Shown here piece by piece: positions 30,156 through 31,692 of a stretch of DNA of 64,000 nt. Origin of the DNA: an uncultured Planctomycetaceae bacterium (lineage in GTDB: Bacteria > Planctomycetota > Planctomycetia > Planctomycetales > Planctomycetaceae); the NCBI GenBank assembly GCA_963976765.1, contig CAXBME010000008.1:186001-250000 (forward strand), read 5' to 3'. The notes beneath the pieces were generated by a model. The model was given only the letters and a program-made list of their open reading frames with translations. It did not search any database and was not told the origin of the DNA. A program made the translations under genes and the position numbers. Numbering within the stretch: position 1 is the stretch's first letter; the number at the start of each line of letters is the position of its first letter.

Positions 30156-30229
30156 CGGGGCGTAGCTCAGCTTGGTAGAGCGCCTGCTTTGGGAGCAGGA
30201 AGTCGCATGTTCAAATCATGTCGCCCCGA
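30156..30229 (+). tRNA. tRNA-Pro(TGG)
   Basis: Acceptor stem CGGGGCG/CGCCCCG, D-arm GCTC..GAGC, anticodon stem CCTGC/GCAGG with TGG at 30190-30192, T-loop TTCAAAT; CCA not encoded. Confidence 0.97.
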
Positions 30230-31692
30230 CTATTGTTTGAGATGAGCCCTTCGGCGAGAACGTCGAAGGGTTTTCTTATTGTCGGGCATAGAGTTACGCC
30301 ATCGAGGGTGCAGTTCAAACAGACGATTTCGAGGATTCGACGCTTTGCATCGTAATCGGCAGTAAGCCATTGCTGACGCAGCGTTTGCGAAAGTTCAAAC
30401 ACTTTGGACGCCAGTTCATCGCGTGAGCGGTCAACCACATCGAGCTGAAGCTTGATGGATGCCAGGCGGTCACGGAGTTCCGTGCTCTTGCGGGCGTAGA
30501 CTTCCTGATCGATGTCATCCGCCAGCCGCAGATTGAGCAGGCGGTCCTGCTGCTGCACCAGCAGAGTTTCCTGACGCTGAAGCTCTGCCCTTTGAGCCTG
30601 AGCATCAGCCTGAGAGTCTCGTGTCTGAGACGCAAGCACGGTTCGGAACCAGTCTCGAACCGCTTCGTCTTCGATCCGCATCCGATCGAAGAGGGCTAAT
30701 ATCTGGCGATCGAACTCGGCTTCCGGAACCCGCACGCGGGGATGTCCGGCTGCCGTGTACCGGGCACACCGGTAATAGATGTAGTAGCGGGGACCGCTTT
30801 TCGTCATCTTTGTTTTACGCTCTCCGGTGACCGGATGGCCGCAATGAGCACAGTGCATGAACTCGCCGGAATACGTCAGGGCGTGTGAGTGGTAATTGCT
30901 GCCTCCCAGCAACGCCTGCACGCGGTCCCATGTCGATCGATCAATCAGCGGTTCATGCTTTCCGGGATACCATTCGCCGCGAAATTCCAGCTCGCCGATA
31001 TAGGCCCGGTCTCGCAGGATGTTGTGAATTGAACCTCGCGGAAACTTCGGCATCGACTTGCGCCAGACTGAACTCCCGGCGTTCATCTTTTCCGTCACGC
31101 CATCGAGTGTCAGATTCTCATAGGCGTAGAGATGAAAGATGCGGCGAACGTTGTCGGCCTGCTGTGGTTCGATTTCGACGATGCCACGTCCGTCTCTGCG
31201 GACATTACGGTAACCATAAGGAGCAAGTCCGACGAACCAGCCTTCCCTCACACGACGGGCGAGACCTTCCCGGACATCGACAGACTGCTGCTCCGTATAG
31301 AAGCTGGCCATGTTGGCCAGCGTTCTTCTCATCATACGCCCCGCCGGATTGTTCTCTGTCGGCTGTGAAACGCAGATGAAGGGGACGTCGTACTCGGATT
31401 CGAGACGTTCAATTTCCACGAAGTCAAACAGATTTCTGGCGGCACGGTCGACCTTGTAGACCAGCAGCCCGTCCAGTTCGAAACAGTGTTTCTTCGTGTA
31501 AGAAATCAACTCGCGAAATGTCTTCCGTTCATCCGACTTGCTCGCTGTTTCGGCGATGCGGAACAACCGGGCAATCGTCCCGTTGTTCGATTCGGCATAA
31601 CGCTTGAGAGCATCCTCCTGAATATCCAGCGAGAAGCCTTCACGCTCCTGCTCCCTCGAAGAAACACGAGCCAACGCGACGAACTTCTTCAT
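30211..31692 (-). CDS. Large serine recombinase (integrase)
   Basis: ARVSS catalytic Ser, VDRAARN, APYGY recombinase domain, CAHC...YYRC zinc ribbon, coiled coil. Confidence 0.95.
   Translation of the reverse strand: MKKFVALARVSSREQEREGFSLDIQEDALKRYAESNNGTIARLFRIAETASKSDERKTFRELISYTKKHCFELDGLLVYKVDRAARNLFDFVEIERLESEYDVPFICVSQPTENNPAGRMMRRTLANMASFYTEQQSVDVREGLARRVREGWFVGLAPYGYRNVRRDGRGIVEIEPQQADNVRRIFHLYAYENLTLDGVTEKMNAGSSVWRKSMPKFPRGSIHNILRDRAYIGELEFRGEWYPGKHEPLIDRSTWDRVQALLGGSNYHSHALTYSGEFMHCAHCGHPVTGERKTKMTKSGPRYYIYYRCARYTAAGHPRVRVPEAEFDRQILALFDRMRIEDEAVRDWFRTVLASQTRDSQADAQAQRAELQRQETLLVQQQDRLLNLRLADDIDQEVYARKSTELRDRLASIKLQLDVVDRSRDELASKVFELSQTLRQQWLTADYDAKRRILEIVCLNCTLDGVTLCPTIRKPFDVLAEGLISNNSRGDMI
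30247..30277 (+). terminator. Terminator downstream of tRNA-Pro, embedded in the integrase CDS
   Basis: CCCTTCGGCG-AGAA-CGTCGAAGGG then TTTTCTT. Confidence 0.7.

Follow-up and report, generated by a model that had tools for sequence, protein, structure and literature searches.

A planctomycete mobile element whose large serine integrase gene spans its insertion point in tRNA-Pro: two predicted C-termini and a possible control on the direction of recombination

The integrase gene, its tRNA-Pro target and the element

The window, i.e., the whole stretch of 64,000 nucleotides that was analysed (G000:C8:186,001-250,000), holds a host tRNA-Pro gene, a large serine integrase gene that reads into it from the opposite strand, and a mobile element that runs on past the window end. 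The features are as follows, in window coordinates unless preceded by a contig label.

30156-30230, plus strand: host tRNA-Pro(TGG), called by ARAGORN (Rfam RF00005 at 30156-30229)
30211-31692, minus strand: large serine integrase, integrated (short) form, 493 aa, from Pfam domains and a codon map
30225-30230, plus strand: 6-bp core CCCGAC common to both element ends, with the crossover inferred within 30226-30229
30227-64000 and on past the window end, strand not applicable: mobile element, 39,023 bp core to core, both ends mapped
30244-30273, plus strand: terminator-like hairpin of 13 pairs including G.U, then a T-rich run; codons K474-L483 of the integrase on the other strand
31788-31812, minus strand: second terminator-like hairpin, between the 72-aa gene and the integrase start, pattern match only
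31870-32088, minus strand: 72-aa gene, candidate recombination directionality factor (RDF), from synteny and a complex model
33129-35452, minus strand: VirD4-like coupling protein and ParB, a module beside the integrase, from domain hits
46640-54624, strand not applicable: MobF (TrwC) relaxase-helicase, ParA and RepA-family initiator, mobilisation and replication genes, from domain hits
G000:C8:255,222-255,253: distal site, outside the 64-kb window
C8:255,251-255,165, minus strand of the distal site: separated integrase tail

The integrase carries the Resolvase (PF00239), Recombinase (PF07508) and Zn-ribbon (PF13408) domains above the Pfam cut-offs, the catalytic motif RVSS with S11 and the zinc-ribbon cysteines C281/C284/C309, and so has the resolvase domain with an R-x-S serine, the recombinase domain and the zinc ribbon of a large serine recombinase (LSR). 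It lies outside the CcrA/B/C equivalogs of SCCmec, as it missed the NCBIfam cut-offs for all three (CcrB, 99.9 vs. 900 bits; CcrC, 63 vs. 900; CcrA, 41 vs. 700). A fold search with a natural homologue, L070, led to the SPbeta integrase (E 1e-20) and also matched the Bxb1, phiC31 and LI integrases, and the integrases of the named relatives, 70-87% identical, come nearly all from Planctomycetota, which makes a host from that phylum probable. As stated in the preliminary description, the gene ends in NNSRGDMI-stop with the stop at 30211-30213 in the tRNA T-loop: according to the codon map, the stop (30213-30211) is the antisense of TCA in that loop, codons 489-493 run antisense to the acceptor stem, T-stem and T-loop, and codons 490-493 together with the stop are host tRNA antisense. 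The T-stem pairing GCATG/CATGT described there was likewise found, with five pairs, one of them G.U.

This overlap of integrase and tRNA is family-wide. The set of related loci comprised 77 loci, giving 76 hairpin-anchored integrase ends found by protein search; 53 of the 76 abut a called tRNA (tRNA-Pro in 47 cases) and 12 a tRNA 3' fragment, with L077 mis-anchored and L082, L087 and L088 off register through frameshifts. Many distant homologues, too, have C-terminal peptides that, judged by eye, resemble tRNA antisense. Members at L063, L069, L077, L064, L089, G249:C1:4,600,761 and similar arms target tRNA-Ala, -Ser or -Met, keep the same register and show core changes that match the new targets. 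Within G000 itself, an integrase paralogue stands intact at tRNA-Pro(GGG) (G000:C42:7,007-8,555), an integrase remnant at G000:C56:18,015-18,863, and two tandem serine integrases (G000:C41:1,779-5,062) behind a tRNA 3' half that is cut at the anticodon loop and adjoins a tyrosine-recombinase-like gene. Extra tRNA-Pro(TGG) genes occur in tRNA arrays at G000:C5:82,893-88,140 (38 genes) and at G000:C27:60-1,338 / C74:74-3,820 (13 + 24 genes).

Within the 64-kb window there is no second copy of the tRNA 3' half, and a BLAST of the genome did not recover the distal site, because the repeat is short, imperfect and outside the window. The site was identified without any motif, from the host sequence that follows it. 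A 15-base likeness of a tRNA-Pro 3' end lies close to where contig C8 ends, and the DNA behind it matches the DNA that follows tRNA-Pro(TGG) in G004 (81% over 169 bp), G005, G001 and G007. In G004, G005 and G001 this DNA runs on into sequence found on contig C65 of G000, and C8 breaks before the C65 sequence at a repeat common to many contig ends. The tRNA-Pro(TGG) and its upstream gene are also present in G001, G004, G005, G006 and G007; in G006 other DNA follows the tRNA. Since the post-tRNA DNA of the relatives matches the DNA behind the distal site, these relatives define the empty site, and the length of the element comes to 39,023 bp; the distal attachment site and the empty site in relatives, for which the preliminary description had called, are thus available, the latter from three empty relatives. 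We regard as nearly certain the layout itself, that is, an integrase gene lying across the insertion point in tRNA-Pro, with two mapped ends.

Homologues of the coupling protein and of ParB occur in 14 and 21 of the 77 related loci, respectively. MobF scores above its NCBIfam cut-off, TraG/TrwB-type domains are also present in the element, and an ArdC-like protein, a tyrosine recombinase and repeat-rich cargo are encoded as well. With an integrase, a relaxase, a coupling protein and att sites as its bounds, the element fits an integrative mobilisable element (IME); mating-pore genes were not found among the 18 + 10 ORFs scanned. The tyrosine recombinase gene and the ArdC-like anti-restriction gene that follows it (38877-41289) lie on the strand opposite to the module and may be a nested unit. 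At the far end (window 55224-63350 and G000:C8:249,623-254,646), the cargo genes encode a repeat-rich protein of surface type with 2708 aa, a protein with FG-GAP/RTX repeats, and one that combines HD-CE and IF-2B domains and is possibly a conflict system.

Attachment sites, crossover and the hairpin after the tRNA

The two element ends (attL/attR) share only CCCGAC. In the tRNA copy, the T-stem CATGT and the acceptor bases G67-C68 agree with the 5' half of this tRNA and recur in G001 and G006; the distal copy reads CCTGT and A67-T68. As the tRNA keeps host-type bases through 68, the crossover would lie 3' of base 68, and the paired T-stem variant comes from the host rather than the element. 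Across 21 comparisons of left and right ends from 15 genomes, several of which join tandem neighbours rather than cognate pairs and one of which has a left end other than a tRNA, the two ends are identical only within tRNA bases ~60-74, and in G108, G027, G129 and G058 they differ at base 74. The acceptor stem pairs fully in 46 of the 53 tRNA-abutting integrases despite variation at bases 66-69, and at three degenerate sites only CGAC is left. The end mismatches, the acceptor pairing and the CGAC-only sites together would put the crossover within tRNA bases 70-73, although drift after integration could blur this, and the dinucleotide C71-G72 (CG at 30227-30228) is its most likely position. All candidate positions fall in or at codon Arg489 and none outside the coding sequence, and the earlier proposal that attP lies inside the integrase gene agrees with the distal site, the empty sites and the natural long-form genes. 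A crossover at the anticodon loop that leaves the C-terminus unchanged, suggested by the paralogue at C41, was rejected, given that the C41 junction borders a different element and the mapped ends give 70-73.

The T-loop GTTC (30209-30212) recurs in the distal arm with a shift of 5 bp: counted from the CG, the GTTC stretch occupies positions 19-11 in the host arm and its likeness 24-16 in the element arm. The comparison of B and P arm profiles was also best at a 5-bp shift (score 2.25; next, 0.93). In the LI integrase numbering, the zinc-domain motif lies 5 bp further out in attP than in attB (PMC3783163), and the tRNA T-loop GTTC is likely the zinc-domain motif of the attB arm. The short core and the 5-bp motif shift of LSR att sites are both found here; the serine integrase itself would make the crossover. 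No mirror of the GTTC motif occurs in the P' arm, and a dyad-axis test of attP gave no clear axis, the one near the inferred crossover ranking 4th. It is conceivable that the tyrosine recombinase (38877-39896) integrated the element and that the overlap of serine gene and tRNA is accidental, as the element does carry such an enzyme and the paralogous site at C41 is displaced at the anticodon loop beside a tyrosine-recombinase-like gene. We consider this extremely improbable: its homologue is present in only two of the 77 related loci, the core measures 4-6 bp, the arms show the 5-bp shift, and throughout the family the serine gene meets the tRNA end in a single register.

The attP of the circle and the long frame that crosses it are reconstructions from the mapped ends; an attP joint was not found in four contig sets over 29000-32500, in which cover at the tRNA is fragmentary. 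A search pattern derived from the distal arm plus four natural long forms matches 78 of the 251 genomes of the class (reversed control, 0) and gives one match in the viral collection. A query with the C-terminal 150 aa was run on 53 genomes that had been selected because they contain distal arms or tRNA hits, and has matches in only 30 of them.

The preliminary description had placed a 10-bp hairpin with a U-tract just after the tRNA; its place and the T-rich run stand, and the stem counts 13 pairs with G.U included, not 10. The hairpin folds at -21.1 kcal/mol; among 3000 synonymous re-codings of the 12 residues the mean is -7.1, and only one equals the hairpin; a generic terminator scan was not above shuffles (4 found vs. 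2.8 expected). Across 39 distinct homologues, 96% of cells are paired, a share that none of the 500 shuffles and none of the slid controls reaches. The number of compensatory pairs is inflated by up to two (17:40, 18:39) through the mis-cut L009, which was left in the 40-row alignment. Compensation is seen at pair 22:35, where 3 cells show it and the protein changes from Glu to Lys, and at pair 26:31 (5 cells, one possibly from L009), so that the covariation among homologous integrases proposed earlier as a check appears as conserved pairing with compensatory changes. Lying 3' of the crossover, the hairpin DNA is element DNA, as had been claimed, and the integrase-less cassettes in G027 and G067 keep it. 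The host's own post-tRNA hairpin is displaced to the far end of the element, and a replacement terminator is therefore the simplest reading; the GC-rich hairpin, U-tract and conserved pairing of an intrinsic terminator are all present, and this predicted terminator likely replaces the one that integration displaced.

The cassettes just mentioned, of 1.6-6 kb, have the same element ends without an intact integrase and often stand in tandem 2-6 kb apart. Examples are G027:C316:47,201-48,827 (L282), G026:C1:21,350-27,656 (L283), G067:C4:242,431-253,380 (L205), G068:C50:697-5,386 (L285) and G000:C27:59,911-62,025 (L284), and their cargo includes AbiEi/AbiEii, a ParA-like ATPase with HEPN and metabolic genes. 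In tandem they look like an integron-like array built by a serine integrase.

Two C-termini and a candidate directionality factor

Read on from Arg489, the integrase frame ends as RGDMI-stop on the tRNA side and as RDDRTPLELFLGGLQDWNRELRRRLSFD-stop on the distal arm, which gives 493 residues in the integrated state and 516 in the inferred circle. Reconstruction of attP and translation through it therefore yield GDMI-stop against a 27-residue tail and not the same C-terminus twice, in keeping with the earlier claim that the integrated and excised forms encode different C-termini; the excised circle would restore the tail. The tRNA-derived ends number five residues in 45 of the 65 tRNA-type ends, 17 in 11 and 2-66 in the rest, their length varying according to whether the host T-loop reads TTCA or TTCG. 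These residues look like filler, and the event would for that reason be a loss of the element's own tail. The change of C-terminus may well act as a regulatory switch. For databases this means that C-termini of the integrase family such as RGDRI-stop are products of integration, not native ends.

The tail is already in frame in four of the 76 integrase ends (L043, L070, L102 and L104), and the attP-type pattern was met in 72 metagenome stretches. Among 126 distinct arms there are 74 attP-type junctions, only three of them with a full-length open gene; in most others, hardly more than the hairpin codons is left or a contig end interrupts the gene. Behind the full-length long-form gene of L070 further cargo follows, and this long form is probably a tandem junction. 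Tail codons 1-10 overlap the binding site and the search pattern and were left out of the selection test. Over codons 11-24 of 125 arms, the in-frame pN/pS is 0.48 and the two remaining frames give 1.03 and 1.72, by a crude pairwise count on arms that are interrelated and in many cases decayed remnants; 119 of the 125 are stop-free in frame against 87 and 95 in the other frames, and the residues G13 (85/125), W17 (73/125) and L21 (62/125) recur with varied codons. Taken together, these figures suggest protein-level selection on the tail, and AlphaFold2 renders it as a helix in the natural long form L070 (block pLDDT about 77-86).

Such a tail could also be a mere by-product of a gene that overlaps a compact attP, mildly constrained and with no regulatory role, the RDF alone setting the direction. 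Ten tail codons are att DNA, conservation beyond them is moderate (the W17 and G13 counts above), and the ends and lengths of the tails vary; yet the low in-frame pN/pS and the avoidance of stops occur in DNA that is translated only in the recombined state, and the tail models give a confident helix. We therefore hold this explanation to be improbable, and a regulatory role of the tail in some form to be quite probable. The tail might, for instance, serve as a degradation tag that keeps the excised-state integrase short-lived, with the integration-dependent immunity of mycobacteriophages as an analogy. An amphipathic tail in one state only would suit such a tag, but the last tail residues are not conserved and the conservation is internal, which makes this very improbable.

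In alignments with the solved chains of SPbeta, LI and Bxb1 the match extends roughly to the KPFDV helix (model residues 210-220), and the short form would therefore keep the known fold, with the tail as an extra. The VIA alignments did not place the tail in the SPbeta, LI or Bxb1 chains; one phiC31 alignment row spans to model residue 244 (ranges only). By approximate range arithmetic, the invariant Phe of KPF falls near SPbeta F532, a residue important for directionality (PMC11722253). When the tail was compared with the preceding KPFDVLAEG helix, this was the second-best window, with a score of about zero.

Two further observations concern integrase ends. The upstream integrase of tandem pairs natively ends in RTP-x-E-L, like the start of the separated tail (G000:C41:3,431-5,062; L087; P0003, P0008, P0011, P0012 and P0028), and such pairs may work together like CcrA/CcrB. 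At L054 and L061, divergent arms carry GTTC at the attP-type distance and a different in-frame tail, and are possibly other arm types.

The 72-aa gene stands upstream of the integrase in 44 of the 48 homologous loci with enough flank, and in an independent search of the phylum 13 of 16 loci had a serine integrase no more than 1.5 kb away, six of these 13 being only 34-36% identical. Its product has no Pfam, PHROG or NCBIfam match, and the ESM Atlas returned only unnamed clusters (best 0.87). Modelled with integrase residues 265-493 (short form), it reached a complex score of 0.76 in three runs against 0.02 for the best of three controls; 116 of 157 solved pairs and 2 of 215 mismatched ones attain the mark for this score, figures that hold only roughly for the alignments used. 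The runs agree in at least 90% of contacts, and the partner has a pLDDT of at least 72. The modelled interface (integrase residues 344-358, 423-431, 452-457 and 473-486) puts the protein at the coiled-coil base, i.e., the zinc-domain/coiled-coil junction, and on the KPFD motif. Verified RDFs are predicted to bind this junction (PMC12286644, PMC11722253), while virtual pull-downs gave four false positives among 11 tested (PMC12286644). Complexes of this kind are solved, and the 72-aa protein has no detected likeness to their partners. On the strength of the model, the 72-aa protein is likely an RDF, and the tail would therefore not replace one: the element probably has an ordinary RDF, to which the tail swap adds a layer.

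It may be that only the long form is fully active or stable and that tail loss locks the element in, as in Mx8 or as proposed for DsiB, excision being left to residual activity or to long copies at tandem junctions. A tail under selection, tRNA-derived ends of arbitrary length and full-length long-form genes at chromosomal junctions (L070) would all fit, and there are parallels: integration changes the activity of the Mx8 integrase on att sites (PMC6070905), and McMurdie et al. suggest that dsiB needs to be on the circle, or to lie behind an adjacent island, for full function (PMC3146451). However, the short form retains everything that aligns to solved integrases, and the candidate RDF is kept beside it in 44 of 48 loci, implying excision by the short form. 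We thus take a damping of this sort to be possible, if rather unlikely.

The best explanation, to which we give a probability of about 0.5, is that the integrated gene ends in tRNA-derived codons and that the tail of the circle is a state-dependent control on the direction of recombination, probably together with the 72-aa factor. The serine integrase would read the tRNA T-loop as the zinc-domain motif of attB and cross over at C71-G72, and the hairpin would stand in for the tRNA terminator displaced on integration. The short form, keeping the whole catalytic and DNA-binding fold, would then carry out excision with the 72-aa protein at its coiled-coil hinge. The long form would be made only from the circle or from a tandem junction and would favour integration, its tail perhaps folding back near the site that the 72-aa protein needs.

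A bolder version would make the tail a built-in anti-RDF that copies the E-L-x5-R-x-W spacing of the factor's first helix and plugs the same hinge pocket, so that the long form is fit for integration only. Integration would cut the plug off by means of the tRNA stop codon, leaving the element ready for excision once the RDF triggers it. In this version the same ends would also drive the integrase-less cassettes that accumulate in tandem at planctomycete tRNA-Pro genes. Only four residues separate the modelled interface from the start of the tail, which does share this spacing with the top contact helix of the partner, but in statistical terms the resemblance is weak (hhalign E 0.14; shuffle p 0.044, rising to p 0.44 when the att-constrained residues are left out), and we deem a plug unlikely.

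If the tail controls direction, the mechanism of directionality would be written into the product of recombination, and would offer a handle for self-limiting integrases. The locus also draws attention to a class of tRNA islands that is common and easily missed, its members having a 4-6 bp core and an imperfect repeat, and an integrase that reads the T-loop could serve as an integration tool for Planctomycetes.

Comparison with known systems

A crossover inside the integrase coding sequence, with the stop outside the integrated element, is found here as in Mx8 and DsiB. The Mx8 integrase (IntP) has attP inside its gene and gains a new 3' end on integration, which has been read as a molecular switch (PMC6070905, PMC4383910). 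It is, however, a tyrosine integrase extending across attP (PMC4383910), whereas here a serine integrase meets a 4-6 bp core at the acceptor end. In the Dehalococcoides ssrA islands, the dsiB gene always overlaps attL in the tmRNA gene (McMurdie et al. 2011, PMC3146451). As here, a reverse-strand large serine recombinase lies beside attL with its stop in the target RNA gene, and tandem islands and a ParB-like gene in the module are further shared traits (PMC3146451). The target differs, being the tmRNA gene there and tRNA-Pro here (47 of the 53 called tRNAs in the family), and so does the partner, a small serine recombinase, DsiA, having been proposed there and a 72-aa non-recombinase protein modelled here. 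The ORFs upstream of our integrase hold no resolvase domain and thus no DsiA-like gene; some relatives (C41, L060 and L087) have a second full-size LSR. With neither a tmRNA target nor DsiA, the element does not belong to the DsiB/ssrA islands, and a tail, a selection test and a coded terminator are not part of the account of DsiB in the available sections of PMC3146451.

The LSRs of LI/A118, SPbeta, Bxb1 and phiC31 share with our integrase the domain order, the fold, the 5-bp motif shift and a small partner at the zinc-domain/coiled-coil junction (PMC3783163, PMC11722253, PMC12286644). The available sections of these three papers do not describe a state-dependent C-terminus for them, and the tandem attP-type junctions seen here suggest reuse of attL as a target, something not foreseen in the LI model. 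A 2015 Islander statement held that serine recombinases were not known at tRNA targets (PMC4383910), against which stand phiRSM ORF14 (PMC3816273) and a minority of tycheposons (bioRxiv 2020.12.28.424599), both of which join a serine recombinase to a tRNA target. phiRSM has a small resolvase-type enzyme and an attP between genes, in contrast to the large integrase with attP inside its gene here; tycheposons have a large serine recombinase in 27 of 937 elements, and the available part of the preprint makes no mention of gene overlap. Integrase genes spanning attP likewise go unmentioned in the available parts of PMC10484663, PMC12884075 and PMC13626063, and the full-text literature, with subscription journals and supplements outside it, yielded no paper on the planctomycete tRNA-Pro clade, the tail or the RDF candidate.

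The short and long integrase, attB, attP and the candidate RDF form a complete testable set. It addresses the question posed by DsiB in 2011, without an answer in the searchable papers, of whether a serine integrase is regulated by the loss of its C-terminus. The layout is not unique, with DsiB (2011) and Mx8 as precedents; what is likely new here is the 72-aa likely directionality factor, together with the integrase-less cassettes that share the same ends.
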